Shown: positions 3,158-50,689, counted from the stretch's first letter. The stretch is DNA of 64,000 nucleotides from Octopus vulgaris (GCA_951406725.2 OX597816.1:135780001-135844000), one strand, 5' to 3'. Numbers and translations are program-made. Notes: a model not told the origin generated them from the letters alone.

Positions 3158-3221
3158 TATATATATATATATATGAAAAAACAAGTCAAAATAGAAAATG
3201 CTAAAATAATTTTATAAAGAA

Positions 3222-3688: not shown

Positions 3689-3769
3689 TTCTTTATAAAA
3701 TTATTTTAGCATTTTCTATTTTGACTTGTTTTTTCATATATATCAACTCGTGTGTTCCTTTTCACCCTT

Positions 3770-3807: not shown

Positions 3808-4976
3808 TTATGAAATCATTTTTAGTCTTCTTTTTTGCTGTGGTTTTGTTTTGTATTTTTTTGTTTTGTGTGATCTTGTGGCAAATAAAATCATATTAAC
3901 CTACTTAAAATTTATTTTATGATTTTGTTGATAGATATTTGGTAGCTTTAACAGCTTTAATGAAAATAAATGTTAAGAATTAAATAATTGAATTTAATAT
4001 CTCCATGTGATCTTCAGAAAATCACAGATAATTGTCACTTATATTCAAGGCCTACTAATATACAAATGTAATTTCTCAAGAATTTTGGTTTTGATTTCAT
4101 ACTTAAATTGTGTTTGGTTTTAATATTTTTAACTGATATAAAACATGTGCTGATAATTGTTATAAAATTATAATTTTTAATGCTAATATATCTAAACGAA
4201 ATTTTGCATACGATAACATAGTGCTAAACATTGTTTTTGTTTTGTTTGTTTTGTTTTTTTCTTAGTTTATATTTAGGTGGTATGATTTAATATATTAACA
4301 TCAGAATTAAAATCAATTACAAATTTAAAATTCAACATTTTTATTAAGTTATGAAGTTTAGTACTGAAATGAAACTTGATGCTTTACCGTATCTAGTTTT
4401 TGTCTTTCACATTACTATGTTCAAATCCCACTGAGATTTGACTGATCATGCCTGAGTTGATAAAATAAACATAAGTAATAATATATTGCAGTCATTAATT
4501 GATATTCATTCCTGTTTTATTTTCATACAAAAATTATTTTGTGCTTAGAAAAAAACTAGATTTCATCTGAGTTTCATTCAGAGCTTAGTTCATAGCTACT
4601 TGGAGTTCAGGAATTTAAGTTAAATATCTGAACCCTTAAGGAATGAAAATCAAGAATAATTATATATATATTCACATAATAGTTAAGAGAAATCATTTAT
4701 TATGTTGATGCTTTGAATTTATTATGCAAGTTACCGTTCAAGAATTTGTGAGCTATACATTGAAAAATAAATGATATTTTTTTGGTTTTGTAAATTGAAA
4801 ATGGTGCATATCTATTGTATTGCAGACTTTTAAATTACTTTCACTAATAATTTAGTAATATATTGCATATTGCATTGATGCATAAATAATGTAATGTAGC
4901 AATCTTTACTACAACATCCTGATGCAGATGTCTACTTTTCCTACTATTTCTTACTGACTTTTGGTATATTTTTTAG

Positions 4977-5194
4977 TGTCCTGCGACCTCTGATTGTGTT
5001 CCTATGTCGGGCAGTATTTTTTACCGGAGGATTTCATTGGATTTCTGTGAAAGGATCGAGGGCTCGCACTGAACTGGCTCCAATTGTTGCTCTCGCTCCG
5101 CATTCCTCTTACTTCGATGCCTTGCCTGTAGTATATCTAAACTTAACAACAGTAGTAGCAAAGTCAGAAGTGGAAATGGTGCCATTTTTTGGAA
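4977..5194 (+). CDS. LPCAT2: LPCAT catalytic exon, variant A (mutually exclusive; LPCAT1-like)
   Basis: ttttag| ... GGAA|gtatgc; 218 nt, phase 2 in / phase 1 out. Encodes VLRPLIVFLCRAVFFTGGFHWISVKGSRARTELAPIVALAPHSSYFDALPVVYLNLTTVVAKSEVEMVPFFG. Branch point tactgac at 4952-4958. Confidence 0.92.
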
Positions 5195-8100
5195 GTATGC
5201 ACCTCATTTATATTTTTCTCATGTCACTTGTCACGTAGTTCACTGTAGTTAGATATTGTTACTTCAAAATTCTTTCGCATCTTTTTTTTTTTTATCAAGT
5301 GCCAGACTTTTATTTAAGATTAAATGTCGAAGCCTCTTTTGTTTAGAAAAATGAAATGTGTAGGCTTACAAACTGGTGTCTTCAAATTTTCCTTTTCAGT
5401 TGCCTTTCTAGTATTGTTTAATACGTGTTATGCATGTTTTGCATGGCCATTTAATACATTTGCTTGATGTATTTGCTGCAGTGATGAAAGTCTTAATACT
5501 TAACCATGCAAAATATTGTTGGGTGCCAGCCAAGTATCATATGAAGAGTTAGATCAATATTAGACATTAACTCAAAGAAAAGAACCTGGCATTTCTGTTA
5601 TTATAACACATTTTTTTAATTATAATTTATAAAAGCTACTTACAGCATTCTATCATACAGATAAATATCAATTATCAAGTCATACTACAATTATCCAATT
5701 AATGATTAACTTCGCTGAGCCTCAAAGTATTCTGTATGAAAATCAGAAGGGTACTAAGAATTTAATAAATTTTATATAACTTATTTCTTGTAGTTTATAC
5801 TCCCTGTGGATGTTGCATTGTTTTGGAATCTTTCTTGACTAAGCTGTAAATAATCTGTTTTAATGATTTCCTTTCTTTCTAGATTTCTAAAGCTGCTTAT
5901 GTATGTAAATATTTATGTAAATTTTAAATTTGCTGCATTTCATTCTTTATACTACATAGTTTAACATCTTTCTTTTATCTGAAGTAGATTGTATTGAAAC
6001 TGAAAGCCTTTTCTTCTTCATTTACAAATTTTTAAGTATATAAAATTTATTCTTTTCAGTTTAAAACATAATTTTTCATGCTTTCTTACCTATTACTATT
6101 AAGAAATTCATTCTCAGACTCAAGGCACTGAAGCTTTTCTTTCAGTTTATCTGTTCATCTATATTGCTATAATGTATTCATTTCAATACTTGTTTTTTTT
6201 TATGAAAAGGACAACTTTTATTGCCTTAAATTGTGTTTTTTATGAGCAGGGCTCTTTATTTCCATTATCTATCTAGAGTATATATACTAATCTAACAGGT
6301 TGATGCAGAGTTTCTAGCCATCAAAAGTGCTGTTTTAAAGAGTTATATTTTATTCAAAAAATATTTGGTATAAAAAGTATGTTAGATATTGAAATATTTT
6401 CCCATTATAGCTTGAAATAATTTCTTTTTATACATTCTTTTTAAAATTACTTTTAAATAATTTTCTTTTCCATTCCATTTTGCTGGGGACTGGAAATACA
6501 TAGCAGTAGACTTATTCATATTATTTCAATGGACTGATCTAATCCTAATTTCCGAAATAAGTTGAAATTCAGCTTGCTTCTTTTATTTAAAAATCAAATT
6601 CTTTACTGACTAGTATTAGTTTATATTCATTATTGCATAAAATTATCACACACATGTGCATGCACATACACATGCACACACACACACACACACAAATAAT
6701 GATCATTAAATATTATCCTTATTGTTAATTTAGTATCCATGTTGGTGTGAGCTGGACTGATATATATTCTTTTTTAAAGCAATGTTTTACATGGTTAAAT
6801 ACTTTTTGTCTTATCAGGACCCATTGAAATGAAGTAAGCCATATGTCATCATCACCATCATCGTTTAATGTCCATTTTCCATGCTTGCATGGGTTGGACG
6901 GTTTGACTGAGGTCTGGAGAGCCTGCAGCTGCACCGGGCTCCAATCTGATCTGGCAGTGTTTCTATAGCTGGATGCCCTTCTGAGAGAGTAGTGGGTGCT
7001 TTTTATGTGCCACTGGAATGGGGGCCAGTCAGGGGTCACTGGACACAGTTGCAATTTTGGTTTTACTTGTCTCAACAGGTCTTCTCAAGCATATCATATC
7101 ACCTGACACATCAAGAGTACTCTTAAAGGCCGGACATCCAACACTGGAATTGGTCATGGATGTGATCTCACTTTAGTTGCCAGGTCTTCTCAATCACAGC
7201 ATATTTCCAAAGGTCTCAGTCTCCTGTCATTGCCTCTGTAAGGCCCATTGTTTGAAGTTCATGCTTCACCATTTCATCCCATGTCTTCCTGGGTCTACCT
7301 CTTCCACAGGTTCCTTCTACAGTTAGGGAGTGGCACTTTCTCACACAGATGTCTTTATCCATATGTAACACATGATCATAACAGTGCAGTTATCTCTCTT
7401 GCACACCATATTTGATGCTTCTTATGTCCAACTTTTCTCTCAGAGTGCTTACGCTCTGTCGTGTGTGCACACTGACATTACACATCCAGCAGATCATACT
7501 AACTTCATTTCTTTCAAGCCTACACATGTCCTCAGCAGTCATGGCCCATGTTTCACTGCCATGTAGTATGGCAGTTTGGACACATGCATCATACAGTCTA
7601 CCTTTCATCCTGAGAGAGAGGCCCTTAGTTGCCAGCAGAAGTAGGAGCTCCCTGAACTTTGCCCAGGCTATTCATATTCTAGCCGCTACACTCTCAAAGT
7701 AACTACTCCCACTATAAACTACTTCTAGGTTTTCCCCTTGGCATGTGATGGAATCTGTTTTCTGTCCATCTTCAATGTTTACTGCCCTTGTGCATCTGCC
7801 ATACACAAAACTATCTTCCTAGTTAACCTTCCTTCGATATTGCTGCACCTTTTATGTATCCATAGCTTACATCAGATACATCGTATGGAGTTTCTATCCA
7901 TGCTTTTTCTACAGATTGGGTAAGGTCATCTACCTGAAGGTGTTTGTGATTTGTCAGCCTTCCTACTTACTAAGACTATATATATATAGGCATACATATT
8001 ATACTTCGCACCTTAAAATATCTTTTACTACAACACTGGGCCAGCCAAAGATTTGTGAGTGAATTTGGTAAATGGATTCTAATAACAGCTGGTGTTAGGA

Positions 8101-8241
8101 AGAGCATCCAGTTGTAAAAACCCTGCCAAAACAGACACAGTAGCTTGGAGTAGTCTTCTACCTGGCTGGCTCCTGTCAATCATCCTACCCATGCATGCAT
8201 GGAAGACGAACGTTAAATGATGATGATGATGGTGGTGGTGA

Positions 8242-8286
<45 letters not shown>

Positions 8287-8566
8287 TCTATGTTTGTGTC
8301 TCATTCTCTTGACTTTACATTCCTTGGAGGTTTGTAACAAGAATAGTATTTAGTTATAGAAAAATCTGCTTCGATACCCTCTATCCGTCTAGAAAATTGG
8401 ATTTTTTAATGATGATGGTGATGATATTTGGTAGGTGCAGGCATGGTTGTGGGGTTGAGAAATTAGCTTTCTAATCATGTTGATTTAAGGTAGAACCACT
8501 CTTTAGCCTTGAGTTGGGCAATGCTTTGTGAGGGAAAGTTGGTAGACAGAAAGTGTTCAGAAGCTT

Positions 8567-8603
<37 letters not shown>

Positions 8604-11600
8604 ATACATGTGTTTCTATCTACATGACTGCATTGATACTTGATACCACTTTGAGAATAGTGACATTGTTTATGTCCCATGAAAGAAATGTCTAGCAGCT
8701 TTCCAGTTCAGTGTGCAAAGATGTAGAATAAAAGTTGCTTGCTTGAAAAACAAGTGTTGGTTTTAGGAAGGGAATTCATTCATAAAATACTTCCTCAAGA
8801 TGTCTCATTCAGTCATGCCACCAGTAAAAAAAAAAGCAGATGTAAAGATGATGAATATTGCTTCTCACTAAGCACATCTTTCTTTTATGCCTAGGATTGA
8901 AAGGAATGTTTGGTGTAATGTGTAGGACAAAGGAGAGATGACTAAATAAATATCAGAAGAGACTGGACCTATACAAAATAGTATGATGTTTGAGACAGTA
9001 ATGGTGACAGTCATTTTGAGAGAGAGAGGACAATTCTACATTCTGTGTATTATAACTTAAATGTTGAAGGAAAAATGAAAATGATATGTAATTAACATCT
9101 CATTTCACACTGTTTGCAGCAAGCAAATATTTAACCCTGTATTGTCTTGAAATCTGGATTCATACTATCCCTGGTCCCATATGCTGTGAAAGAAGGTGTA
9201 GCACCAAAGTAGCTGTGTAGGAACTGTCTAGCTGAAAAGTTTTATATATCAACTTTCTTGTGCATAACCAAATATATATTTTTAGATTTTCTTATGGAAC
9301 CTTAAGCTTAAGCAACTTTCAAATTTGGTGATTACCACAACTCAATCTTGTCATTCTAATTTGGAAAGAAAATACTTAATTACAACAGCCTAGTCTTCAA
9401 GGGCCAGGTACTTAATTGCTTGCCTAAAAACGTCAGGGATTTAACAAGTTTTTGTTGACATTTAAAAAGTGTAATTTCAAATTGCTAAGGTTCCCATCCA
9501 ACCAGCAGTAGCTGCTGTTTACAGCCTAAATAGTTTCCACTGATGTATTGGTACAACAACTATGTAATCTTATGTAGAAGCTAAAATAACAATGATAAAA
9601 TAAAACCAAAATAGTTTAGATGAGCATAGTGTGAAAATATTTGATGACATGACTATTTGGAGTGTGACTTTTCCAAACTTCATCCTTGGCAGAAATGTTA
9701 GCTTATGTATAATTAACCCTTTATCATTCAGATTACTCTGTCAAATGTAAAGCTTATTTATTCACATTTTAAAAATTAATTATGAATTATTTTGTAACTT
9801 AAAGATTTTGGCTGATGTGATTGTTTATTTTTAGAATAACATTGTAGAGTTGGTGTGAGATGCTTGATCTGACCAGTTTGAACATCATAAGTAGAATATT
9901 TGGGCTGGATATGGCTGGTTTAAATGCTAATGGGTTAAACTTTAAATGTTCTTGCAACAACAAACTTGATAAAATTTATTTAGTTGCTTTAATTCAATAA
10001 TTACAACCTTCGGTTATCTTTTAATGATGCATTGTTTAAATGAAATGTACACATATTGAAAAATAAGCGGTGTTGTGATGGGAACAAATGTGAAGAATTG
10101 AGGGGATAACATTAGTAACTAATAATAAGCATGGAAGATTTAAGGAAAATCTGATCAGAACTGCTTATGTAATATCAGATTTTCTCAACAAAAGCTATCC
10201 ATCCACTTTAAGCTGTTTATGGGTCAGAATGATCTAACTCATTCCTTTGATGAAACTAAATCATAAGAATACAGGGAAATTACAGAAATAGAAAATGTTC
10301 GTGCAATTATTGATAATGCATCATTTTTAGTTGGCAGGAAAAAACCTTTAAGATTACTTTTGATATAAAATAAATTGTGAGTTTTTAATATTTTGTTTAT
10401 TGTCAGAGCAGTGGATATTATACAGTACCAGGCTGGATACTTTACTGAAACTAGTTTGGTATCCATGGATGGATTAGCTTTTCATCTCTTCAGAGTTGAT
10501 CAAATTATTATCAAAACTAGGTCAATCAAATCAACTATTTCTCTCTTCTCTAAAAATTGGCTCTGTACTACTTAGTCAACAGAAAGCAATAGCAATTAGT
10601 ATATTTTTGTGTGTAAAATCAAAGTAAATCAATTTTATGTATACTGCATATTGCAGTGGTAAGTTGGCATTGATTACCTTTTGGAATTATGTTTATGGGA
10701 AAAAGCTGAAAGGTCACAACTTGTAATTTCTCCACTACTAAAGTCTCAAGCTTCGTGTCTATGCCAAAAGACATTATATATTGTCTCACTTTTTTTATTT
10801 TTTTAACTCAGTTGACAAAGCTCAGCTAAATTAAACTCAGTCTACTGAAACAGAAATTCTTTCTGGAATGAATATCAGCACAAATCAACAAAAGTTTATC
10901 AATGTTTCATAATCGAATCAACATGTTGAGCTGATGAATTTAATGGCTGCAGCAGACATGAACTTACATACTGATTTATCAATTATAATTCTATAATATT
11001 TTATTGAATTTTGTCTTAAACAATTTGGTAGTTATTTTTGTTAAGCATGTACTTTTCTTACAAGTGTTCTTCATTGTAGAAAATGAGGCATAAATGCTTT
11101 GTAGATGTCATATAGTGCAGCTAGAATTAGTTTCTAGATTAATGCATTTTTAAAGTAAATAAACTTTAATTTCACTGACTTCTTTGCAAAAACTAAGGGT
11201 TCTAGTATCCAAAAATATTGAGAACTTTCTTGGTTACAGATTTGTAATCTAATCAAAGTTTAATTTTAAAATTTCTTTTATCAAACCAATTTGCTTATAT
11301 TTTGAAATAAATATAACATGTTTTTATAAATATATTTCTATCAGAATATTCCCCTTTATTGCACTAGAATACATAATTTTCAGCTTTAATAAAATCTCTT
11401 CAGTTATATTTAATATTGTTTTACATTTTTAATCATATTTAATTTCAATAATAATGGTTGGCGGGTAAAAAAGTGCTCCAAGAAGTCACTTCAGATAGTT
11501 ACTTTATATTAATTATGGATAAGAAAATTAAAACTCTTCAACTTACAAATGAAAACTGCTCATAGAAGCAGAAAATATATCATTAGAAAAGGAAGCTTGA

Positions 11601-14600
11601 AGTTTTGCCTTTAAAAGGACACACATTAAGAAAATATAAATAAAGAAAATTCAGCTTCTAATGAATAATTCAAATAATGAGGTTCTACCCCAAGGCTTTC
11701 TTTTGTTATTTATATTAGGTAATAACATTAGACTACCACAAAGTTACTATCAACAGTATACCTTGAAAATACATAAAATGTAGGACAATATTTAAACAGT
11801 GGAATTAAGAAAGAACTATTCTGAACTATTTAATTATGTTCAATAATATGAAGGATCCAGATTGAGTAAATTACATACATGCTACCCAAAATAGGATCAT
11901 AAACTGTATGGACACCATTGAATATTTGAAGCTTCTATTTCAAAACAAAAAAGTATAGGATGAACCAGCATAATAAGAAAGTGGGAGAAACCGTTGATCT
12001 CAGATTTCTGGAGGCATAGAAAGCAAGAATGAACAACTAGTTTTTCCTTTACTTTTATGGATATGAAATTTCATAAAGTATGGTATATCCAAAATGTGAG
12101 AAATTTGAGTAGCTGAGCCTTTAGATATGTGCAGTTTAACATTTTTAGATGTGAGTTTTTCAGGCTGTTTCTAAGGTATCCATCACCAACTTCAACATAA
12201 AATTAACATTAACAAAATCACATCTGAAATTAAGTCAGTAACCAAAGACAACAATGTTGTACCATGACCATAACCATTTAATTTATACTGAAAGACTAAC
12301 CGTAACTAACACAATTAGATCATGGAAAAATCAATTTAGCTATTTAAGAACACATAAAAATTATTATACAGTAATCGCCATATCATAGTTCACCTATTGC
12401 AGTTTATTATTTAAGCTTACGTCAATTCCTCCGTAGTGTTGTTTTGCATTTATGATAAAATAAATATATACAAATTATAAAAATAATAAAAAACATATAT
12501 ACAGTACCGTACTGTTTCTACTTTGCAGATTTTCACCTACCGTGGGGGGTTTTGGAACGTAACGCCTGTGATATTCGAGGAATTACTGTATTCACTTTTT
12601 TAAAATTATTAATAGTAAAGTCTACAATAAAGTGTCAAATCATTTCATCCCACTTTTGTGTTCTAGTCACTGATAAAAATTCTATTGCATCATCTCAGTT
12701 CGTAAGATGAAATAGATCTAAGTAGATCTGACCAGGTTGTGGGAGTGTAAAGAAATTTTTTTGACTCTTCTTCATAAGAGACTGTATTGTTCAGAAATAA
12801 GCAAAATGTGAATACAGCAATTTTTGTGTGTTCTTAAATAGCTAAAATAGCTCTTCCATATTGTCACTTTTTAGCCTCAACACAGAGTCTCTAAAATAAG
12901 GGCAAGAACAGCTCCAAAATAGTACCTAAGTTGGTAAATTGTTTTTTAAAGCAGATTTTTGTCAGGAATACTGGTGAAGATATATAACAAAAACAGCTAT
13001 TTTACAATGACTAAGATTGTTTGATATAGATTTATTATTCGTATTCAGAAACTCTATTTTGAACTAATAATTTTTGTTTTTCTGAAGAATTATTTTTACA
13101 TTACTATTAGTAATGAGAGTCAATGTGAACTACCTCAGGCTTGGTCATTACTAGTTGTAAACTATTTCTATTTTCATTTTTTTTTTCTTTTGGTTTACAA
13201 TTTTCTTTCATGTAATGTAATTAAGTTTTCCCGTTTATTATGTTTGTATACAAATTTGTTAATAAATATGCTGATTTTCTTATATGCATCAAATACGTTT
13301 TTTATTTCATTCCTATAAACAACACTGAACGTTTTATTGCAGCTACTGGTTAATCATAGTTAATGTTATAAGCACTAGTTTTTATCCTTCCTTCTCTTAT
13401 TGCAATAGGATCGTGAACTATGTACTCCTAAAAATCTCTCGGATCATCTTCTTTGTGATGGGATTTCACTGGGTGAAAGTCAAAGGACACTGTGCACAAG
13501 CAAAAGAAGCACCAATTGTGTGCATTGCTCCCCATTCCAGCTTGTTTGATGCACTAGTATTTTTTATGATTCCTGAATTACCTGCTGTGGTGTCAGCTGT
13601 AGATCATATAAAAGTACCTTTCATCGGAAGTAGGTACCAAGTTTTTAATTTTAAATCAATTTTATTGCTATGGTTTTACCACTGCTAACTTGAGAAATGG
13701 TGAACTCTTAATCCATGTCCATTACTTTAAAGTTTCAGAGAGAGGAAGTTTCCTTCTTTTTTTTTATGTTCAGCATAGAAAGTTTTAGTTTTAGTCTTAA
13801 AGATTTTTATTTGATTTACAGCTATAGTTTATTATTCACAACAACTCTAACTTACTAACAAGTTTCTTGTATTTAAAAATAACCTATCTAATGTAGCTTG
13901 TGAAAATACATATTTGTAGGGTAGCATTTCTAATTACTTTACACTTGTATTGGCTATTAACATTTTTGCATTAACTATTGTTATCATGAAATACTGCTAT
14001 AAATATTCTCTGCATAGAAGTTTGACCAGCTTATGTTGCGGCCAGATCTACTAACAGGATGGAAAAATTTACATTGGAACCAGATGTAAGCTGTGAACAA
14101 CAGTTCATTTTCTGCAGAGCTATATCTGTTTGTGACTTAAATTACGATAGGGCCCCAGCATGGCTGCAACTTTCAAGCTGAAACTTGTAAAGAAAAACAT
14201 GCTCTCTTGTTCTTGAGAACTTCATTGAAAGCAATGTTGTATTTGACTTCAACAAATGTCCAGTATGAAAACCTCCAGGCAAAGTTTCTTGCCTTTGGGC
14301 TTCACCCATATTTCATATGTTAGATTGGAAATTTTCTGACAGACATTACCATCATAGCATATATTAAAGAACTTCTCCCTCCCTAACCAATTTTCTGCTA
14401 CTTTTAGCATGCCTTAAGTTTGTTATATCCCCTATATACTCTCTTCTTTAACTTACTCTCAATTACTTTCAACCAAAAACACTGCCATGTATAAGTTAAT
14501 ATTCTTCTTTCTTGAATAATCTCTTGTACAATGACATTACCCATACACTGCTCTTGCCGACCAATCCATAAAAAGTAAATGTAAACATGACACCTCATAT

Positions 14601-27400: not shown

Positions 27401-30400
27401 TTAATATCTATGTTAAAGTGAATTTAAAGAATTTGAGAGTCAGAAGGATTTTTTTTTAGCATAATAATGTTGCCTGCTATCATTGCTTTGAAATCTGTTA
27501 CTATTCTTTGTTGTCAAAATTTTATAAAGATTTAGATTAATCTGCTATAAACAGGCATCAGTTTGAGATAATCCATTCTCTTTTGGTTTGGTTATAGTCC
27601 TGTTTGTCACAAGTGTAATCATTGAAGAGTTGATGTTAGGTCAGCCAGAGCTGGGGGTCTTTTTTTCATCTATTAATCAAAGACTCCTTTTATTTTCTTG
27701 CAAGAAAGGCTAATCTACTATAAAGAGACATCAATTTCTCTTTAGCTTTTGTCATATTGTTCTGTTAGTCACAAGAGGACATTTTGAAGAGTTGATGTTA
27801 GGTCAGCTTAAGCCTTTTTCTTTTTAAAGACTCCATTAATGTACTTGTAATTATAGATTATTTATAAACTTTATATAGTCTATGCTGTTAAGTTATGTGC
27901 ATAAAACATTTTGGTTACCAATGGATCGAAATTCCTGTCCTATCCACCCTCACATATGGGACAAAGGGAAAATTTAATTTTTATAAATGGGTATCTTATA
28001 TAGAAAATATTCATTCTGACATAAGCTGTTTGAGGCAAACAGTAGAAGTTAAATACTGTGCTTTGAGTTTGTGGCTTTTGAAATTCTAGTCTTGTATCTT
28101 AACTTTGCTTTCAGTTCTTTCTATCTCTATTTCTCTGTCTCTCACAATGAATGAGAAGGTAATTGTGTTCAGCGTATCTTAGCAACTGTTAACTTTTTCA
28201 TGGTGTAGTTTCTGATGTTAATTTAGGAACAGTGCAGGTATTAAAGTAACTGATTTAGCATGAGCTCTTTTCTGTAATGAGTATTCTGCTTTAATGTAAT
28301 ATCATACAGGACAAGGTAGTAAAACAAGTTTTACTTTTGAATTATGTTCAATATTATATTGTTTTCTATTTTTCTGATATATATATGTGTGTGTGTGTGT
28401 GAAATAGATTAGCTTCTATGTGTACTATTTGAAATTTTCAGAACTGATCCAGTTCACTCAGCCAGTATTTGTATCTCGAGAAGACCCTAATTCCCGACTT
28501 AACACAATCAAAGAAATCAACAAGAGAGCTCATTCAAAAGGAGCATGGCCACAAATTGTTATTTTTCCTGAAGGGACATGCACCAACAGATCTTGTTTGA
28601 TAGGGTTTAAGCCAGGTGAGGTTATGAAATATTATTAGTAGCTTTATAATTATTGAAACCAATCCTTTTAATTACATACTCATTAACACTTGTTTTAGTA
28701 ATCATTTATTGTCACATTGCAGTATAGTATTATAATATTCTTGTTATCTTTCAATTATTTTATATCTGTTAAATTATGATTCTACTGAATGGTTAACTAT
28801 AATTAATCTAGAAAACATTGGATCAGGCTCTTAGGCTTATTGACAGAATCTGTTCACTTTAGTCTGTACACACTTTTTTTCTAGATTTTTAAAGCTTAAA
28901 ATTTGGAGTGTGCATTACACACAAGAATTAATTATCCTATTTTTCTCTGGCCAAGTACTTGACTTTATTGGGATGGTTTGACCAGGAGTAACATCAGTTC
29001 CCCAAGCTTTAGGTTGGGGAATGGATGACAAATGTTTTTTTTATTGTATAATATGCTAAATGTTTTACAAGTATGTATTAAAGGTGTAAATCTTACCCTT
29101 TTAGTGCAAATTTTGATACCTATTGCATGATATTCACAAAGAATAGTCACCAAACACAGCCACTCTCATCAGAGTTGATATTAACTAGTGTGTACCTAAA
29201 TTATGATGATGATGATGATCATCATCATCCTTTTTATGTTTAGTTCTTATTTAGAGCTCTTACTGACCTCTTAGATAACCATGGAGCCACATCTTAATTG
29301 TACACTTCATATTTGGTGTGGTTTCTATAATTGGATGCCCTTCTTAATACTAACCATTTCATACAGTGTACTGGATGCATTTTATTGTGATACCAGTATT
29401 AGTAAGGTGTCTTGTTATCCATTAAAGAATCATCCCAGTATGATGGGAGAAACACAGTGATAGGACTGAGAAAGTAATGCAGGAAGGTGTTACAGAAGAG
29501 AGATAGCAGCTACATGTTACTTATTGTAAAGGGACTGAATTAAATAATAGTGTATAAGTGAATAAGAATGATGGTGGAGAGCCAGTGCAATGGAAGAAGA
29601 AAAATATGAAGAGATCTGAAACCATCTCTCATTACACAGATGTTATGATTGGAGAAAGTAGTGTGATAAAGGTGGTGGTATGTGGAGATTGATTATGAAT
29701 AGATGCAGTGCAATATCTCATTACACAGGCAGTATGGAAAGAGAATGACAAATGAGAGGGTAACAAAGATGGGAGAGTAAATGGCAATTTAACTGAAACT
29801 TTTTGATGCGTGGTATCAAAAAGTTCCCGGACTAGTTATGTTTAATAAAAAATAACTTACTTACCTAAGTTTTAACATCATCTCCTTTGAAATAGTTACC
29901 TTCCACAGCAATACACTTGTCCCAGCATTCCTACCACTTTTGGAATCTGGCTTGGAAGTCATTTTCCGTGAGTTGAGGACCTTCTGTGATTTGCTCTGGA
30001 TATTGCCAGCGGTATTAAAACAGTGACCTTTGAGCTGCATTGTTATCTGGGGGGAAGAGATAGAAGTCTGCAGGTGATAAATCTGGTTGCAGGGTGGGTG
30101 CAGAAGCAATATCATGTTGTTTTGGACAAAAAATTCATGAGTGAGGAGAGCTCAGTGACAGGGTGCATTGTCTTCATGAAGAGTCTAATTCTTCACGTTC
30201 CATAGATCCAGTCACTTTCACCAAATGTCCTCCCTCAAATGTCCACAACAAAAATAAGACTTCAGCATACACGTGATTACAAAAACAGAAATTTCACAAA
30301 TTTTCACAGTAAACATAGTGATGTCACTCAGCACACTGCCTCATGAAGGTCACTGCTATCTCTCACTGCATATGCAACTGTGTGCTGCCATCTGTTGGTG

Positions 30401-32575: not shown

Positions 32576-35500
32576 CATCAAAAATACCTTATGAATGAGA
32601 ACCCAGGTTTGAAATTTCCCCAAGACACTTGATGAAGGCTGGAGGGTTAACAACAAACAAGATGAAGACTAATATCCGTCAAATGTAAATAATGCTCACT
32701 AGGATGGTTTCATTATCCATGTATGCAAAAGGAAAGCTCTAGTTGGTGAATGTAATCTGTTGGAATGATGGACTTGTACTTCTCTGCCAACCACTGGTTT
32801 CACTTAATATGAGCATACTACTTGAACAGCTTGTTAATGCTGACTGACACCTAGTGGTTATAGATGAGTAGTTATTCCACCAAAAATAATGGCAAGATTT
32901 GTTCTCATGGACTACAACGCTTTTACATTATACCCTCAATGGTATCTAAATGTATCAAGCACCAAGAAGATGGCAGTTTCAACATGCTGTCTGGATACAT
33001 TGGTTTTAATCTAACCACTTGTTATCTCTGCAGTAAACCACACCTTCTTTTCGTTTTGTAAGTGTCTCATCAGACTAAGTCATTTTCTTAAAGACAATAT
33101 GTAACAGCAGCTATTTTCCCTTTACCAGCAACAACCAGTATCACTGTAAATTGTAACTATTTTCTGACCCTTGAAATTAACTAGTGGTTGATAGTTAATT
33201 TCAAGGGTCCTTAGCAGTAGTTAATAGTTAATGTCAAGGGTCAGAAAATAGTTATTGTTTGTAGATACGGCAGTGTCTTATTTTGCATTTTCAATTTGTT
33301 ACAGATCATACTCCTTAGTTTCCTGTAATTCTTGTACTTTTATACTGTGTGAGTCTATCGATAAATTGACAGCTCATGTCTCTGTAAAACACTGAGTCCA
33401 CTCCACAGTAGTCCTGAAGTTGTCAAACATTATTCCCATCATCTTAGTGATTCCATGACTTAAGGTGTATATTAGTTGTGCTAACTCTAATATTGGCCAT
33501 TCTGTATTCCTTCACTCACGTCATCAGTACCTTTTCAAACTTAGGAAATCTAGCAGATTTTCCTGTTTTACTTTTTTGCCTTAAGAATGGAATGGAGGTT
33601 GGATTTGCATCTGTGTTAGAGTTGGATATTGACTTAGAACATCCAAAATAGCAACCAGCTACCCAATTCCCATTTTCATTTACATCAAGATTGCCTTCAC
33701 TTTCTATTTCTGTACAATGTTCATTTAGATATCATAGTTGAAACTGACAACTTTGTAATAAACACATACTCTGCTTTCCTCCTAACACAACTGCACAAAC
33801 TGAAAAGTAAATGTGATCAAAATGTAATTGATTTCTAGGACATTAATTTTGCAGCTTATACCTGTAAAGTTTGAATTTGCTTTTTTATTTCATGTTGAAT
33901 GCGCAAAGTGTTTTAGTTGGAAACAATGTGATATGATTTCCTTCAGCATTTTATTCACTAATTAAAATAAATCTGACTGACTAATCCTTTTAATAATGAA
34001 TTGAAATATGACTTGCCGACTGCAATCTCTGTTGGTAACCCTAAATGACACAAAGGAGAATTCAGTGGAAACATAGAGATAATTGTTTTCCAGGATTTCA
34101 TTGTCCATAATTAGGGCTATGCATTATATATGAGTGCATATTATATCTGAATAAATATGGTGTTTATCTCATAAGGGGAATAATCTGTATAATAATATTT
34201 TAAAAAGTAAAAGCATTATCCCTTTACTTTAAGATATTGCTTATTTACAAGTAAAATTATAGTCATTATCATAATCATAATGATTATTATTTTGTGTCCG
34301 TATATGTATAGGTGCTTTTTATCCTGGTGTCCCTGTTCAGCCTGTATGCGTCCGTTACCCTAATAAATTGGTAAGTAATTTATAACATTCCAATGTAAAA
34401 TATTCTGATTGTATAAAAATGGTAATGGGAGTTGTGCTTGTCATTAATTAAAACCTTTGTATTTATGGTTAAATCTTATTTATATATTTAGCCCTTTAGC
34501 ATTCAGATTACTTTTTCAAATGTAATGCTTATTTATGCACATTGCTTTGAATTAATCATTCATTATTTTGTAGCTTCAAGATTTTGATGATGTGACAGTT
34601 TATCTTTAGAAAAACATTGTTGGGTGGGTGTGAGAGGCAGGACCTAGCTGGTTTGAATATAAAGCAGGTAGAATATTTGAACAGGATATGGCCAGTTTAA
34701 ATGTTAAATGGTTAAGCATACCTCTAATACAGTCAGCAATAATTGAAGTTGATCACTAAATAATACTTTATGCTGGAGCCAACATCTTACATGGATAACT
34801 TAATTAACGATGTTAGGCAAACCTCAACATAACTATTAAGAAGCAAGTATATTCGTAAAAGATAAAATATAGTACCAATCAAAGGCTGAAAGATCAGTGT
34901 CTGAAGAAACTAAATTAATTTGATATTAAATTAGGTATTTTTCCTTTATTCAGTACTTTTATATTTACTCATACTCTCTAACTTCTAGAAAATCGTTAAC
35001 TATATATTGTTCTTATATTTGCAAAAATGAATTTTTTTATAAGCAATATTAAAGTTTTTGCAAAATGATATTTTCAGGATACTATAACTTGGACTTGGGA
35101 TGGACCCGATGCGTATGTATTAAATTAATTTGAATCTTCAGTTAAAATATTTATTTATTTATTTTGCAATGTCCTTAATTCTATACTTTTTCATTACCTT
35201 TTATTTAGGTTAATATATCTTCAAGTTCAAATCATTGTAATGTATATACTGACTGAAAATAGGTGGCTGTTTAAATGGTTGTAATTAGGAAAGTCATCTA
35301 GCTGTAATAATTTTTATCTTGCAATCCACTCCATTTAAATTTGGATCCTGATCTTGTCACTGTTAGTCTGAGAAATGTACATTCACTAAAAAAAAAAGTG
35401 TAAAATCATTAAAAGGCAAAATTAATAGTGGCAAGTTTTTAAAAATGTTCCTCTATGAGACTGTTATACATTCTGTAAGATATTATTATAAAAATTTTAT

Positions 35501-38008
35501 TTTTAGCTTGCCTTTACAAGGACCCTTGCATTCAGTTATTTTTATCACATTAATAGAGCTCACCAGAAAACTGAATTCTCTTTCCAGAACAATATAAGCC
35601 CAATTTTCAGTTTGCAATTCTCAGTTAGATCCCTGATGGTATCAATATTTAGCATACTTCAGTGCTATACATTATAGGTGTAGTATAAATTTAAAAAGCC
35701 AACCTGAAATTCCTATGTGCCATCGGGGAAAAAAAAATCTGTTCATCATCATCAATCTATACTTGTATGGATTGGACAAAATTTATCAAGACAGATTTTC
35801 TACAGTTCATTACCTTTCCTGCCACCAGCCCTCTCCTGTTCCCAAATTAGGTAATATTTTCACAGAAGATGGGAAATGAAGGGCACTATGTGTATGATGC
35901 TGACTACTTGTTTACAACTATCATGTAATGTCAAGACAAGGTGACACTAATGTGCACACGCGCACACAGATATGTATTTGTAATGCTACCATTGGTTTCA
36001 TGGGAAAACATTGCAATTACTAGGCATTCTACTTTAAAATGTTAGGAATTCATCCTGTTTTGGATAAGGCTATCCATTTTTAAGTAGAATACTTGATAAT
36101 TGTGATGTTTTTGCCTGAAATCAAGGGTAGGGTTGTAAATCTACAATTAAAGAGTTTTTATTCACCAAATGCTGAGTTGAACACGCATTTTCACTGTTCA
36201 CCACTATCATATATATATATATATATATATATAAGAAAATGGAGGGAATCAAGAGGTGGTATTCATCAGCTTTTAGACATTATATTATGTCTATTTATTT
36301 ATTTTTTAAAACACCATTGTAACAATATACATACATGTATAACATATTATGCTTTACATATATAATATATAAAAATATAATATAGTTCTAATATACATCC
36401 TCCCTTGTGCTGGTATCACAATAAACTGCATCCAGATCTCACTGGTTGGATATAGCAGCACTGGGGATTCAGCAAGCTGTGGTAATGCAGTCCCTTTGGA
36501 GTAGCAGTAGCACTGAATAAAAAGTGATACAGAGTAAAGAGAACACTTTAATTCTGGCAGACTCTCCTTACTGCATGTAATATTATAAAATGTGCCTGCT
36601 CCATGTTCATGGTTGGTGGTAAGAAGGGCATCCTGCTCTAAAAACATACCCCACTTCCCAATAGAATGCATTGTTTATGCTGCAAAGTGATTCATGTTAG
36701 AAAGGGTATCATGATCATATTCATTTAGTATCTATTTTCTAAGCTAGCATGGATTAGATAGTTTGACTGGAACTGGTAAGCCAGAAAGCTTTACCAGGCT
36801 CCAGTCAGATTTTGGTTTGGTTCCTACAGCTGGATGCCCTTCCTAACACCAACTACTCCAAGAGTTAGTGGGTGCCTTGTACATGTTACTGGCACAAGTA
36901 CCTTTTATGTATCACCAGCACTGTCCACAATTATGATTTCACTTGGCCTGATGAATCTTATCAATCACAGCAAACTACTAAAGGCCTTGACCATTTATCA
37001 TCACCTCCATGAGACCCAACATCCAAAGATCATGCTTCATTACTATGTCTCATGTCTTCTTAGGTCTACCTCTTTCACAGGTTCCCTCCACAGTTAGGGA
37101 TTGACACTTCTTTTTGCAGCTGTCCTCATCCATATGCATCACATGACCATACCAGCACAGTCGTCTCTCTTGCAGACCACATCTGATGCCTCTTACGCCC
37201 ATTTTTTCTCCCAAGACGTTTATACTCTGTTGTACATGGACACTGACATCACACATCTAGTGAAGCATACTAGCTTCATTTCTTTCAAACGTTTGCATGT
37301 CCTCTGCAATCATAGCCCATGTTTCACTGCTGTGTAGCATGGCTGTCTACACACAAGCATCATACAATTTGCCTTTCACTCTGAGGCAGAGGCCCCTTAT
37401 TACCAACAAAGTTAGATCTCTAAACTTCGCTCAGCCTATTCTTATTTTGAAAGCATATCCCCAGTCTCTTCTCTCAATACTTGATATACACAACAATGGA
37501 AATAAGTCTGTTGTTGTGTATGTATGTTAGATAGTGAAGAACCATGATAAGCTTGTGATGTGATGCTGTAATGGAACAGATCATCCAAATATTCCTGTTT
37601 TGTATATGTTTATCAACTTCTAGATTTCACCTCAGTTACATCCCTTTGAGGATCACTGCACTTTTACTAACTGTCATACTATAAGTTTATATTGACATGT
37701 ATGTGCACACACACAGACACACACACACATATTTGTTTATATATTTGCATACTGAATTTCGTAACCACCCTGTTATTTTTGTCCAGCAAACTTGATAACA
37801 TTAAAAAAGACAATATTTTGAATTGAGAAATCCAAGTGATGATAGGCATGGCTGTGTGGTAAGAAGTTTGCTTCCCAACCACATGGTTCCAGGTTCAGTA
37901 CTACTGCATGGTACTTTGGATAAATGTCTTCTACTATAGCCTCAGGCTGACCAAAGCCTTGTGAGTGGATTTGGTAGATGGAAACTTAAAGAAGCCTGTC
38001 ATATATGA

Positions 38009-38045
<37 letters not shown>

Positions 38046-41000
38046 AAATGTGTATGTATTTGTGTCTGTCCCCCACCACTTGACAACTGGGGTTGGTGTG
38101 TTTACACTCCCATAATTTAGCAGTTCAGCAAAAGAAATTGATAGAATAAATATTAGGCTTTAAGAAATATGTACTGGGTTTGATACATTCAGCTAAAACT
38201 TCTTGAAGGTGGTGCCCCAGCATGGGCTAGTCTTAATGACTGAAACAAGTAAAACATAAAAGATAAGAATTCTTAGATAATGCTGATACACTACATTTAT
38301 AAAGAGAATATAACAAGAAAATCATAATTTTCCTATCAGCATTTGAAATATAAGTAAAATGATTCTCGACAGGAATCAGAATTTGGTCACAGACTGAATT
38401 GGTCCACAAGTTACTGCCATATCACTGTAACTATTGTAGTTCTATTAAAGATGTTTTTGTGTTTAATTTCAGATTTAAAGTATTATGGTATACACTGTGC
38501 CAGTTTCATAATAATGTTGAAATAGAGGTGAGTTTATATTTGAGATGTACTGTATTAACATTTAACATTTTTATTGGATTTTTGTATTTGAGGATGGTCA
38601 TGTTGCCAGTTTAGCCAATAAAACGCGCAATATATTTGGTGTTAGTTTGCTTCAGCTATAGTTATTTTTAAGTTAATCGTATTTCAATCAGAGTTCTTTC
38701 ATCATACTTCTGTGACCTCATCAGTGGTCCTTTCTTCTTTCTTATTTGTGTGTCTTTATATTAAATGGCTGATCGTTAGTAAGGAAGAACACACAAATAA
38801 GAAAGAAGAAAGCAGAGGACCACTGATGAGATCACAGAAGTGTGACAAAAGAACTCTGGCCAAAATGCAATTGACGTAAAAGTAAATAAAGCTGAAGTAA
38901 ATTAACACCAAACATAGTGCATGTGTTTTATTGGCTAAACTGGCAACATGACCATCCCCAAATACAACAATATCTGTTTCAACACACGGTTTCACATCAA
39001 AAATCTTGCAAAATGAATATATAAATGTAATTTTTATTGTAGTTTTTTAACTTATTGCTGATATTTTTCTGTTTCTGTATACACACACATATACATATGT
39101 ATATTTCAATATTCTTTATGTTTACAATAAAACACTTAATATACATTATAATACTTGTAAGACTACTTTTATAACTAAATTCATCAGCTGAGCTAGATTG
39201 TCTCCTACAAAAGAAAAAAAAAAGAAGGAAAAAAAAACACACAAAATCTAAACATGCAAAACATACAAAATCAAAGCAGTGAGTAGGTTAATATCTAGGA
39301 TTACTAAAATAAACTGTACAGAGAATGTCTAATTTGATATAGTCCATTTCACACAGTGGAGAACTTTGTGATGAAATTTATAACATTGTCCCGGCAGAGG
39401 CTGAAGCTTGCTTACATAGTGTACTAAGCCTTTGGGGCACTCCTTAATGTTTACTTGGCTGAATCCATGTCATAAGCATATTTAGTCTAGACTGACTGCA
39501 TCTATTAGATAACATTTTGCTGTAATTTTTCCCCTCCAAGTTTCATTATAGTTCCCTGTCTGAATAAAGGGATTGACTGCTAAACTTTGTGATATCTGAT
39601 AGTAAGAGAACTATTAACATATGTGGAAATTATGTTATCAAATTTCATTGTTTCTAGCCTTTTAGTCTCTGTTTTATCATGATGACAGAGCTAAGATGTT
39701 TCAGAACAAAATTACTCTGGTGTAAAATGCTTTAACTATACTCTGTAGGATTGTAGCTCACTTTCTTACTGATTCTCATCTTACGTAATCTTGTTTAAAC
39801 ATTATATTAATCATCATCATCATTATTGTTTAATGTCTGCACTCCATGCTGGCATGGGTTAGACAGTTTGATAGGAGCTGGCCAGGCAGGAGCCTGCACC
39901 AGATTTCTGTATCTGTTTTTGCAAAGTTTTTACAGCTGGATGCCCTTCCTACACCAACCACCCAGCAGAGTAGACTTTGTATGTGCACAAGCACAAGTGA
40001 GATCAGTTTGGCATGGTTTTTACAGCTAGATGCCCTTCCAAATGCCAACTACTTTACAATGTGAACTGAATACTTCTTAAGTGACACCAGCATTGGTAGG
40101 GTCACCAAGTAACTTGCAAGATCCTTTGAGAGGGGAGGGAGCATTGGAGGAGGAGGTCTTGTGTCAGATGATGAAAGGTTATAGTGAGACAGAGAGATAG
40201 AAACAAGTGTCTTACTCTAGGGGAGGTACGTGGTTACCCGGCCAGAGAAAGAGAGAAAAATGAGGACAGAAACAGGTGTGCTACTGTAAAAGAGATACAT
40301 GGTTACCCAACCTGAGGGAAGAGTAGGAGAAGGGGAGAAAAAGTGGGAGACAGCCGGAGAGAGATAGTGGCAAAATGCCAGGGCATACTTACAAGAAACA
40401 GGAATCAGAATATAAATAGAAGAAAAAAAAGTTTAACTATTTACTTAAAAGCTCTTTTATTGTATGTTCCAGTTTCTACCTGTACATATACCAAATGAAC
40501 AAGAATTAAGAGATCCAAAGTTATTTTCTGAAAACGTTCGCCTACGAATGGCCAAGTGAGTTATAAATGTTTTTAAAAATCTAATAGGATATTTTGTGTT
40601 AGCAAAAAATAAAACATCTAAAATACCAATATCTTTTCAGTTGAAATGTGATACTAAAAGTAACCCTACCAAATTTAACACTTGTAATAAATAAAATTAA
40701 GTCAAAATCTTAAATCTTGAAAGATAAAAAGAGACATCTTTCACATACTAAAAGGGGTCAAAGTATGATAATCTTAAAGTTATGTTTGAAATTTTCAATG
40801 ACTTATTTGAGTTTGTAAAACAAACTCAATTAATTCACTTAACTCCAGTTGGATTAAAAGTGATCCTGTTAATTATGTTCAGAAATTGACACTCTGTCAA
40901 AAATCTTCAAACTTGACATAAAATAGGTACAGTCAGTTGTAAATAAAGTGTTTTAAAGATACTGATGAGTTTCATCTATTCAAAAGAATTGTTAGACTAA

Positions 41001-41495
41001 TGTATAAAATTGCTGCTGTACTTGCATTTCATCAATTACAATAAACTGAATTAATTAAAACACAAAATAGATAAATAGGGACAAGATCCAATTTCCTCAA
41101 TATGAACAATATCAGTCAATGGGAAATAAGTAATATAAATTCTAAGTAACAAGTTACTTTCATTGATAACTAATTTTTGTGAATTGTAATCATAGGTATT
41201 GAAAAATCTATGTTGGGTAGTTGGGTGTAAGTAATAGTCAGTACTGGAGTATAACTAAAAATGATCTAAGGTAGGATAATTAAATACAATTTTAGAAAGT
41301 TTGGCCTAAAGTAATATTAAAGAAATAATGGAGATGATGATTGTAATTGAGTTATTCTAAAAATTTAGAAATCTTGCATCTAATAACTTAGTAATAAAAT
41401 ATTTATCGGTTTCTGAATTACAATTTGAGGAAATAAATTAAATAACATTGAAGCAGCAAAGTATCTCTCTATAAGGATTATATTAATAAGATATA

Positions 41496-41543
<48 letters not shown>

Positions 41544-41832
41544 ATTTCGGAATGGTCATTTTGCCAGTTTAGCCAATAAAAACACACGCACCATATATTT
41601 GGTGTTACTTTGCTTCAGTGTTATTTATTTTTTACATTAAACTTAATCTTATTTCGGCTGAAATAAGATTCAGTTTAATGTAAATAACACTGAAGCAAAG
41701 TAACACCAAATATATAGTGCATTGGTTTTTATTGGCTGAACTGGCAAAATGACCATTCCGAAATACAACAATATCTGTTTCAACACACGATTTCACATAA
41801 AAAATCTTGCACAACAAATATATATCTATCTA

Positions 41833-41877
<45 letters not shown>

Positions 41878-41979
41878 CTGGCCTGATGCAGCCTTCGGGC
41901 TCCCCAGACCCCAGTTGAACCGTCCAACCCATGCTAGCATGGAAAGCGGATGTTAAACGATGATGATGATGATGATGAT

Positions 41980-42029
<50 letters not shown>

Positions 42030-42171
42030 TGTATGTATGTATGTATGTATGTATGTATGTATGTATGTATGTATGTATGTATGTATGTATGTATGTATGT
42101 ATGTATGTATGTATGTATGTATGTATGTATGTATGTATGTATGTATGTATGTATGTATGTATGTATGTATG

Positions 42172-42202
<31 letters not shown>

Positions 42203-44611
42203 TGTATGTATGTATAGTATGTATGTATGTATGTATGTATGTATGTATGTATGTATGTATGTATGTATGTATGTATGTATGTATGTATGTATGTATGTAT
42301 GTATGTATGTATGTATGTATGTATGTATGTATAATTGTAGAAGAGGTGGAACTGGCTGAGTTGTTAGCACATTGGACTACTTTATAGCATTTCTTTTAAC
42401 CCTTTACCCCTGAGTTCAAGTCCAGCCAATGTCAACATTGTCTTTTATCTTTTTGGAGTCAAAATAAAGTATCTGTGAAGTAGTAGGATAGATACCATGG
42501 AAAGCAGGTAACCGGCTTTATGAGTCAATATCTTTGGAAACTTAGTATTCATACATATAATTGCAAGTGTAATAAAAGTTGATATTAAGAAGAAAAAATT
42601 AATTACCTGTGTTAAATACATGCAAATAAGAATTTTGCAAGTAGTAACTCAATGCAGTGTGTTTGATATAATATAGTAAAAAAATGAATCATTAATTAGC
42701 CTTCACTGCACTTTATGAAATGTTGGAGATATAGCAAAATTTTTGAACAACAACAAAATCAGTATTCTTTCTCAAATTACCAAAGCATAGCTTAATAATG
42801 ATATAGAAATTGGTTGTTATTGAAAATAATTTTTAGAATTACACATTTAAAAATAAAAATAGTTAGTCTAGAAGTAAATTGTAGATGATTTGGGTGAATT
42901 GTAATATTCAAAATACACATGGTAGAAGTTACTAACGGTTTAGTTTAATAAACTTTTGAAAATGAATATTTTTAATTATGATAAAGTTTTGTCTCCATTT
43001 AGCAGGTAACTTGTAGCTTGAGTATAATTAGACCAATTGAATTAAAAAAAAACAAAACATTTATGCTGTTGCCTCCAGTTATTTACTAGTATAGAAAAAA
43101 AAATTTTCTTCATGGGTCCATTCCAGTAAATTCTTTAGTATTTTACTGTGAGAACCTGTTATATTTAATGTCTGTCTTTTTTTTTCTACAGATGTTTGAA
43201 TTGTACTATAACAGACCACACCTATGATGACTGTCGGCTGATATTATGGGCTGCAAAAGTGAAAATTCCTATTGTTAAAAGAATTGTTGAAATTTTTAAG
43301 CTTCATAAAAAGCTTGGGTAAGCATCAGATGATTATGCCATATTTACATCCTTAACCAAAGTCTTACTGAACTTATTAAGTCTTACGCTGGTGCATTTAA
43401 CACAGATACATATAAACAAGCGTGGAATGGCTGGAGCTAGGTCTTTTAGGCTTCAAGAAATCCTTATTCCTTTAATAAGTATCTTTTGAAGTAAAGAATA
43501 AGACTTAAGTAAATTTTAAGAAATGTGAGAATGGCAGGTGTGACCTACCATTTTCGGTTTGTCTTTGGTTTAATGAAGAGAATTTGTTGTTATAAATGAT
43601 GCATTTGAATTGATGAAAATTTGCCTGACCATTGTTGAGATTAAATGACTGTAGAAATGATATTAGAGAAATCTTACTACTAGTGAGTTAGACAATCAAA
43701 ATAGAGAGTGAAAAATCTATTCTGAAAGGGTCATATATTTGTCAGATGCTATTTCTGTTTTCACTTGCTTGTTATATACATTTTTTAGTTTTTCATATTT
43801 CAATTTCAAGCTATTAAACAATTCTGTTATTTCTGACTAATGGGATTTTTATTATTTTAAGTTTTAACACAGAAGCCATGAATGAAGTTCTACTCAGAAT
43901 TCGTCAACAAGTTTCTTCTGAACCTCAAGAAAAGATAACTTATAGAGAATTTTCTGAATACTTAAATATATCACAAAATGACAGCTTGCAGCGGTTGTTT
44001 AAAATTTATGATTTTGTATGTATCTTTTTGAAAATTAATTCACTTTCTATAAATGTACTTTGAAAATTAATTCACATTCTATAAATGTACTTTAGTGCAA
44101 AATCCCATTTAAATAAAAAAAATGTTTGTGTTCTTGTGGAATTGTTATAGTTCTTACTATCTTCATTTTTATTAGTTTTAATTAACCTGTCTAAAGAATT
44201 CTTCCTAGCTAAAGTTATAGGCAATTGAAATATAACTTCAATTCTGAGAATAATTATTAATGCCTTGCTTTATATTGATTTGACCTTGCTCTTAATTATT
44301 TAACTAATATCATGATTTATATTCAGGAACAGACTGGCCACATTGATATAAGAGATTATGTAGTAGATCTGTGTTTGGTTTCTGGTCCTGCTACTATTGA
44401 AGAGGTATTGAAAATGGCCTTTCAAGTAAGAGATTTTTTTTTTATCTATTGTATTTAAATTTAAGATTTGCACACACATGGTTCTGAGTTCAGTCCCACT
44501 GCATGGCACCTTGGGCAAGTGTCTTCTACTATAGCCTCAGCCTAACCAAAGACTTGTGAGTGGCTTTAGTAGACCAAGATTGAAAGAAGCCTGTCGTGTG
44601 TATATATGATG

Positions 44612-44647
<36 letters not shown>

Positions 44648-50650: not shown

Positions 50651-50689
<39 letters not shown>

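Follow-up and report, generated by a model that had tools for sequence, protein, structure and literature searches.

Can one gene make two phospholipid-remodelling enzymes by exchanging a single exon? The question is raised by a 64,000-nucleotide (nt) stretch of the Octopus vulgaris genome (GCA_951406725.2 OX597816.1:135780001-135844000), here called the window, in which a preliminary description had pointed out two related exons of an LPCAT gene, each with the HxxxxD catalytic motif of acyltransferases. We found that spliced mRNAs contain either of these exons, 3A or 3B, with the same exons on both sides. It is very likely that they are a tandem-duplicated, alternatively used pair of third exons in the invertebrate LPCAT1/2-type gene, which was duplicated before molluscs and arthropods split and of which both copies were kept.

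Two versions of exon 3 in one gene

The gene structure was established with the O. vulgaris protein P0007, which corresponds exactly to 13 coding exons, none of them found more than once: exon 3A, two exons that precede the window and 10 that follow 3A. All lie on the plus strand. Exon 1 is at offset -40693 and exon 2 at offsets -7598 to -7456 relative to the window, both upstream of it. Exon 4 (28442..28615) is constitutive and holds the motif 2 region and the FPEGT of motif 3. Nine more constitutive coding exons (34311..49632, with codon blocks near 34311, 35078, 38474, 40473, 43193, 43863, 44327, 47426 and 49501) hold motif 4 and the C-terminal EF hands, with the stop codon at about 49632. 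The introns measure 12432 nt between exons 2 and 3A, 8214 nt between 3A and 3B, and 14812 nt between 3B and exon 4. The remaining genome matches to P0007 were EF-hand regions only. Since the 12 other coding exons were each found once in the genome, and just 3A and 3B were found as versions of exon 3, two genes or mis-assembled haplotypes were ruled out. Both isoforms scored above the Pfam cut-offs for PF01553, with the HxxxxD and FPEG motifs, and for the EF hands. By sequence the gene is assigned to the LPCAT1/2-type acyltransferases of the AGPAT family, and lysophospholipid acyltransferase activity is predicted. Taken alone, neither exon matched Pfam, and exon 3B alone matched no relevant solved structure.

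Exon 3A (4977..5194, 218 nt) and exon 3B (13409..13629, 221 nt), both on the plus strand, are entered in phase 2 and left in phase 1, and each has an AG acceptor, a GT donor and the common end GGAA/gt. Each is open in translation and in frame with exon 4. Global alignment gave 31 identities among 72 aligned residues plus one gap. Re-checking thus left the preliminary description intact in its coordinates, lengths (both 2 mod 3), splice sites, reading frames and identity of ∼42%, and also in its proposal of a single LPCAT gene with two exon versions. It had further proposed an old duplication under purifying selection. The identities between 3A and 3B at codon positions 1/2/3 (0.47/0.71/0.32) agree with this, and by that measure the exons appear to be an old duplicate maintained at the protein level.

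The pair stands well apart from chance matches. With tblastn, 3A and 3B matched each other at an E value of about 1.5e-14, and the next-best chance match within the window had an E value of 0.48. A search of the whole octopus genome (2.8 Gb) with exon B scored six candidates and returned two matches, 3A and 3B. Over the range that begins 9 kb before the window and runs to the window end, a search profile derived from 64 exon-3 sequences matched 3A and 3B and no other exon (independent E values, 1e-31 and 3e-29; next best, 3). No third copy of exon 3 was found by the profile in that range, which takes in all of intron 2.

Evidence from RNA came from four sequencing runs of four studies; the runs were chosen because they contain exon B, and their assembled contigs were aligned to positions 4700-13900. 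They were taken as RNA since the contigs skip GT-AG introns. In run X8, one contig matched 4977-5194 exactly and overhung it by 30 and 26 letters; a second matched 13409-13629 exactly, and its overhangs correspond to the last bases of exon 2 and the first bases of exon 4. Run X3 held both exons whole. Run X10 held 3B only, with no cover of 3A, which is no evidence that 3A was absent. In run X6, 3B was preceded by the last 25 letters of 3A across a GT..AG joint from 5194 to 13409. In sum, 3A was whole in two of the four runs, 3B was present in all four (as expected of runs chosen for 3B), and the A-to-B joint was seen in one. The overhangs that flank 3A in the contigs are of matching length, and its placement between exons 2 and 4 comes also from the RefSeq X2 proteins: in Octopus bimaculoides and Octopus sinensis, isoform X1 carries exon B (495 amino acids) and isoform X2 carries exon A (494 amino acids). 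The spliced contigs and the RefSeq isoforms agree with the alternative use that had been proposed. Contig depths (25 versus 43 in X8, 10 versus 6 in X3) were not taken as inclusion levels. No alternative letters suggestive of RNA editing were listed for 3A or 3B in the contigs, though contigs lose rare variants.

The preliminary description had also held that only mRNAs with one exon or the other are productive. At the level of the reading frame this stood: a form with both exons reaches a stop 6 nt into 3B, and a form that skips both reaches a stop 47 nt into exon 4. Both stops come long before the last exon junction, a placement that subjects an mRNA to nonsense-mediated decay, and both forms are thus expected targets. 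At the level of splicing it stood only in part. Splicing joins exon 2 to 3A or to 3B, but the joint from 5194 to 13409 was made in run X6, and so exclusivity is leaky, not strict; forms with both exons would be made at times and then cleared, and exclusivity is probably completed by nonsense-mediated decay. A transcript-derived protein, P0024, enters the core at exon 4 without exon 3 and is possibly a product of the skipped form.

The arrangement of the locus narrows the possible mechanisms. The intron between the exons (5195..13408, plus strand) is 8214 nt long, is rich in repeats, contains 452 AG dinucleotides and can be spliced out; the AG-free zone before 3B is an ordinary 28 nt. The length of the intron, its AGs and the A-to-B joint rule out steric exclusion or a distant branch point, and incompatibility of U2 and U12 sites is ruled out by the GT-AG ends of both exons. 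Among 16 pairs of regions within 200 nt of the splice sites, no RNA duplex stood clearly above shuffled sequences (best z values, -2.5 and -2.1, from a crude shuffle). Microsatellites and dispersed repeats made up the 25 longest inverted repeats listed, with no docking and selector pairing among them. The simplest mechanism is that the choice of one exon is regulated and that decay removes the mistakes; pairing deeper in the introns is still conceivable as an alternative. A tentative candidate for a splicing element is the stretch just after the 3B donor (13630..13646, plus strand), which is possibly conserved beyond octopus: its read-through peptide has six residues in common with P0004 and P0011-13 in a comparison of proteins whose exon is itself 64% identical. 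A second GT lies 4 nt into the stretch. The window holds no strong complement to this element; the only one, at 25510, has three mismatches, and 4 of 100 shuffles did equally well.

Distribution and age of the exon pair

We aligned 225 animal-type proteins; 38 distant rows and tandem gene models were omitted. Two records were counted as an isoform pair if they came from the same species, showed 100% identity in the core that follows exon 3, and showed 26-49% identity within exon 3. The count is a lower bound, as it was made on one representative per cluster among the best 120 of 1303 and the best 150 of 1238 matches. At least 17 species, spread over four phyla, had such pairs. Thirteen are molluscs (two octopuses, Patella caerulea, Pomacea, Gigantopelta, Haliotis, Biomphalaria, Saccostrea, Crassostrea virginica, Ruditapes, Mya, Dreissena and Mizuhopecten); the others are the brachiopod Lingula, the beetle Aethina, and the hemichordates Saccoglossus and Ptychodera. 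One gene of Ptychodera flava has three versions of exon 3 (P0286, P0298 and P0321). Gene models of the cockroach Blattella (P0076) and the mussel Mytilus coruscus (P0244) run A and then B in one chain, which is the octopus order, and in 12 of 15 protostome pairs the codon at the junction of exons 2 and 3 specifies Asn when A is used and Lys when B is used. Judged from these protein records, the exon pair appears far older than octopus and common to molluscs, a brachiopod, arthropods and hemichordates.

Some records fell outside the count. Two arthropod-like predictions, P0137 and P0091, have two HxxxxD segments each and are probably further cases of the pair. The snails Babylonia and Nucella (P0227, P0264, P0228 and P0294) have one B-type and one A-type record each; these differ along their whole length and so were not counted as isoform pairs, and the two exons may here have been separated into two genes a second time, independently. 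The isoforms of hagfish do not swap exon 3.

The two exons have evolved at different rates. Between octopus and limpet, 51 of 72 residues are identical in 3A and 30 of 70 in 3B, by which exon A appears to be slow-evolving and exon B fast-evolving. Between O. sinensis and O. bimaculoides, the identities are 73/73 in 3B, 69/72 in 3A and 148/152 in the core that follows.

A tree of exon 3 was made from 64 rows and 72 columns under the LG+G4 and mixture models; bootstraps had not fully converged under either model. The 20 protostome A rows all came together with four LPCAT1 rows (mouse, hagfish and two assigned by grouping) with support of 91/86 under LG+G4 and 64/74 under the mixture model. With three ambulacrarian rows added, the resulting branch of 27 rows had support of 90/93 and 98/97, respectively. 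The eight LPCAT2 and LPCAT4 rows fell outside it. Residues agree with this division. The A exons and LPCAT1 have in common Gly87 (18/20 and 3/4 rows), Tyr115 (13/20 and 4/4), Pro120 (11/20 and 4/4) and Lys133 (20/20 and 4/4). LPCAT2 and LPCAT4 have Ser132-Arg133 in eight of eight rows and Asn136 in seven of eight, as do B exons and four outgroup rows, whose position outside Bilateria is a guess. On a profile built from protostome exons, LPCAT1 was A-like in three of four rows (+10 to +18; the other, -4.8), at the low end of the +8 to +118 scored by true A rows, and LPCAT2/4 were B-like in eight of eight. By these residues 3A would be the derived, LPCAT1-like type and 3B the ancestral type, like LPCAT2 and LPCAT4. 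A tree made without exon 3 (42 rows, 379 columns) placed the 12 vertebrate rows together (100/97), with LPCAT2 and LPCAT4 as a group (96/78). Since the vertebrate rows are united outside exon 3, the paralogs would be younger than the exon duplication.

Approximately unbiased (AU) tests rejected a clade of all mollusc A and B exons (P = 0.027), a clade of all protostome exons (P = 0.018) and a clade of all deuterostome exons (P = 0.041), the last two groups having been named after the tree was seen. That the duplication predates the molluscs, and is common to them and the arthropods, is well supported by the exon sequences; that it predates the protostome-deuterostome split is likely. Vertebrates would then have turned a splice choice into a gene choice, with LPCAT1 keeping 3A and LPCAT2 and LPCAT4 keeping 3B. 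We consider this partition reasonably probable; it is that of the best tree but is not proven. As for the full history, we lean slightly toward a bilaterian ancestor with one LPCAT gene and the exon-3 pair, between whose members most invertebrates would still switch and which the vertebrate gene duplications would have frozen as A in LPCAT1 and B in LPCAT2 and LPCAT4.

The strongest rival to this history is that exon 3 was duplicated independently in molluscs, arthropods and hemichordates, that likeness to A, including that of LPCAT1, arose by convergence, and that the vertebrate exons descend from a single exon. Monophyly of the vertebrate exons was indeed not rejected (p-AU, 0.169 and 0.301), and the three variants of Ptychodera show that further duplication did happen. 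The negative score of one LPCAT1 row fits it too, as do scores below 0 on the protostome profile for the hemichordate rows that were grouped with A. All six matches from Branchiostoma were B-type, but that search used a B-type query, and the count covers cluster representatives among the matches listed. Against independent duplication stand the rejection of the mollusc, protostome and deuterostome clades (each at P < 0.05, uncorrected), the presence of the residues common to LPCAT1 and A at four separate columns, and the fact that octopus, mussel, cockroach and beetle agree in exon order and in the residues at the junction. On this evidence we regard independent duplication as possible, though rather unlikely.

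The protein segment that is exchanged

Exon 3A encodes membrane helix 2, motif 1 (HSSYFD), a lysine that matches Lys105 of the bacterial acyltransferase PlsC, and a PxxG kink. Exon 3B encodes the same module, with HSSLFD as motif 1 and, in octopus, Ala at the Lys105 position. We modelled the B isoform with AlphaFold from an alignment of 53 rows (mean predicted local distance difference test score [pLDDT], 83.7; single-sequence input gave 38.6). In the model, exon 3 spans residues 70-143 and includes a helix (68-86), strands (91-95, 106-110 and 129-133), motif 1 (His112 and Asp117) and the PxxG kink, with a pLDDT of about 90 across the exon. The top Foldseek match was PlsC of Thermotoga maritima (5KYM; E value, 2.6e-6), which was the best match by sequence as well as by fold and whose His84/Asp89 and Lys105 align inside exon 3; the A isoform was placed by sequence alignment only. 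The model thus agrees with a predicted PlsC-type fold with an N-terminal two-helix anchor. PlsC differs from the octopus protein in being a bacterial lysophosphatidic acid acyltransferase without EF hands, about 20% identical to it. No structure of LPCAT1, LPCAT2 or LPCAT4 was among the solved structures searched.

The preliminary description had spoken of two swappable active sites. The exon does carry motif 1, but its His and Asp are identical in 3A and 3B, and motifs 2-4 are constitutive; the swap would therefore exchange one wall of the pocket and a membrane helix, not the whole site.

Two positions in this lining stand out. Hamano et al. place Ala115 of mouse LPCAT2, in their model, on the floor of the acyl pocket and report that a bulky residue there alters the preference among 16:0 to 20:4 acyl-CoAs (10.1101/2020.10.31.363515). 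We mapped Ala115 on LPCAT2 rows other than the mouse LPCAT2 sequence itself by counting from His146. It fell on the residue before a conserved Arg, at position 80, in four of five rows; in the fifth, where a one-residue gap is missing, the count reached the Arg itself. Of 15 B exons, 12 have Gly at position 80; none of 15 A exons does (they have Cys, Ser, Tyr or Ile), and all four LPCAT1 rows have Met. The floor of the pocket would be bulkier in A and LPCAT1, which may fit the C16:0-containing phosphatidylcholine (PC) that LPCAT1 yields (PMC8753187). The other position, 133, aligns with PlsC Lys105 and is Lys in all of 15 A exons and Arg (8), Lys (5) or Ala (2) in the corresponding B exons. 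Differing by alignment in helix 2, in the residue at the pocket bottom and in the Lys105 loop, the isoforms would most likely be unlike in acyl-CoA preference or catalytic rate. We think it probable, then, that this one gene encodes two phospholipid-remodelling enzymes. The preliminary description had proposed that splicing switches the specificity of phospholipid remodelling or lyso-PAF acetylation, possibly by tissue or temperature; the differences at positions 80 and 133 lend a switch of specificity indirect support.

The Ala at position 133 allows another account of the octopus protein. It occurs in octopus B and in P0004, whereas Lys or Arg is found in 20 of 20 A, 16 of 18 B and 12 of 12 vertebrate rows, and the same two proteins have Asp-His in place of the usual Glu-Asn. 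Octopus B could thus be a slowed or non-catalytic regulator or scaffold on the endoplasmic reticulum or lipid droplets, and splicing would be a dial for activity rather than a switch of specificity. However, B preserves the PxxG kink as well as His and Asp in motif 1, it is identical between the two octopus species, and the B model folds with good scores across the exon. Furthermore, the catalytic role reported for PlsC Lys105 is through its backbone amide (10.1101/2021.02.05.429882), which Ala retains. We therefore consider this account improbable.

It is more improbable still that the isoforms are biochemically alike and that the pair is kept since unproductive mRNAs tune the level of the enzyme by decay. 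The A-to-B joint was observed, and the forms with both exons or neither have early stops, as such tuning would have it. But the split of molluscs and arthropods is more than 500 million years old, and residues at pocket positions that have been held apart by type for so long would be unexpected in interchangeable proteins. An assembly artefact, two genes or one dead exon copy can be dismissed, as nothing was found in their favor, the other exons are single, and both exons are present in spliced contigs and conserved across species.

Several points nevertheless weigh against an ancient pair that distinguishes two enzymes, the reading we prefer. Exclusion is not strict, as the A-to-B joint shows, and the RNA data are assembled contigs from runs chosen for exon B, which carry no inclusion levels, joint frequencies or tissue pattern. 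Outside octopus the pairs are known from annotation, as protein records. The B exons never formed one group in either tree (seven to eight label changes), and so B is defined by the ancestral residues that it retains. With only 72 columns in the alignment, clades of coleoid A and B exons (p-AU, 0.073) and of insect A and B exons (p-AU, 0.12) were not rejected, nor was the vertebrate clade. The P values of the seven AU tests are uncorrected, and the protostome and deuterostome groups were chosen post hoc. In octopus itself, the difference at position 80 is only that of Cys in A and Ser in B, and the functions of the isoforms are predicted from alignment and a model.

Neighboring elements, related systems and significance

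The introns and the 3' flank of the gene contain various repeats. Intron 2 holds a broken Helitron-like element (673-2212, plus strand) with two long open frames. One contains the Pif1 helicase 2B domain (PF21530; E value, 9.5e-18), and the upstream one, which had no Pfam match, resembles the Rep part. At 3167-3743, about 1.2 kb upstream of 3A, a 203-bp near-perfect tandem repeat is overlapped by 143-nt inverted arms that are 99% complementary; from its sequence this is classed as a fold-back element. Just past the stop codon region, from about 50600 to 52700, is a TA/TG microsatellite of about 2 kb with a GC content of 0.16. Short frames on the minus strand at 61189-61371 and 7393-7671 resemble a mariner transposase and an RTE-type long interspersed nuclear element, respectively; neither matched Pfam. 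The repeats at 6850-7770 and 9600-9950 had very deep cover by RNA contigs, drawn from other copies.

Mutually exclusive tandem-duplicated exons are a well-known kind of event. As described in PMC8373072, PMC9741552 and PMC7954323, such exons are likewise homologous, of the same phase, ancient and used one per productive mRNA, with a frameshift on double inclusion, as in octopus LPCAT. Events that involve catalytic residues are uncommon but known; nine are listed in PMC7954323. Precedents also exist for paralogs that each keep one ancestral exon, as we propose for LPCAT1 versus LPCAT2 and LPCAT4: CACNA1F and CACNA1S are one case, and FYN versus FGR, SRC, YES1 and FRK is another (PMC9741552). 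In those cases, however, a human paralog still has both exons, whereas the LPCAT pair, common to molluscs, brachiopods, arthropods and hemichordates, was seen only in invertebrates and would therefore be missed by a catalogue built on human genes. No annotated exon pair inside a single vertebrate LPCAT gene was found among the records compared. Vertebrate LPCAT1 (LPLAT8), LPCAT2 (LPLAT9) and LPCAT4 (LPLAT10), also of the AGPAT family, likewise have PF01553, EF hands, motifs 1-4 and the PlsC fold (PMC8753187), but they are three genes, whereas octopus has one gene with two versions of exon 3, the proteins of which are known from sequence. The fly orthologue, Drosophila CG32699, has LPCAT activity and is located at lipid droplets; the passages of PMC4293825 that report this make no mention of its splice forms.

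The preliminary description knew of no such exon pair in an LPCAT gene. We likewise found no alternative LPCAT exon 3 described in the literature available to us, and no LPCAT in the accessible text of the catalogue papers PMC9741552, PMC8373072, PMC3923563 and PMC7954323 (main text and, for the last, supplements); the fly gene may stand in the supplements of Hatje and Kollmar 2013 or in Kassiopeia. Both isoforms are, on the other hand, already in public annotation (RefSeq). The pair thus apparently exists in automatic annotation but is undescribed as a bilaterian-wide feature.

What determines the acyl and acetyl preferences of LPCAT1, LPCAT2 and LPCAT4 is poorly known. At least 17 species appear to offer natural pairs of enzymes that share about 425 of 495 residues, the differences being confined to the exon that lines the acyl pocket; if our reading is true, these invertebrate isoforms are ready-made chimeras. 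If LPCAT1 and LPCAT2/4 are derived from the two exons, the origin of these vertebrate genes would also be explained, as a very old case, beyond the human-centered catalogues, of a splice choice that became a gene choice. The division of labor between LPCAT1 (palmitoyl-PC, surfactant) and LPCAT2/4 (inducible platelet-activating factor, other lysolipids) would then predate the genes themselves and reside largely in one exon of 72 residues. In marine invertebrates, the exon pair is a candidate switch for the remodelling of membrane lipids.

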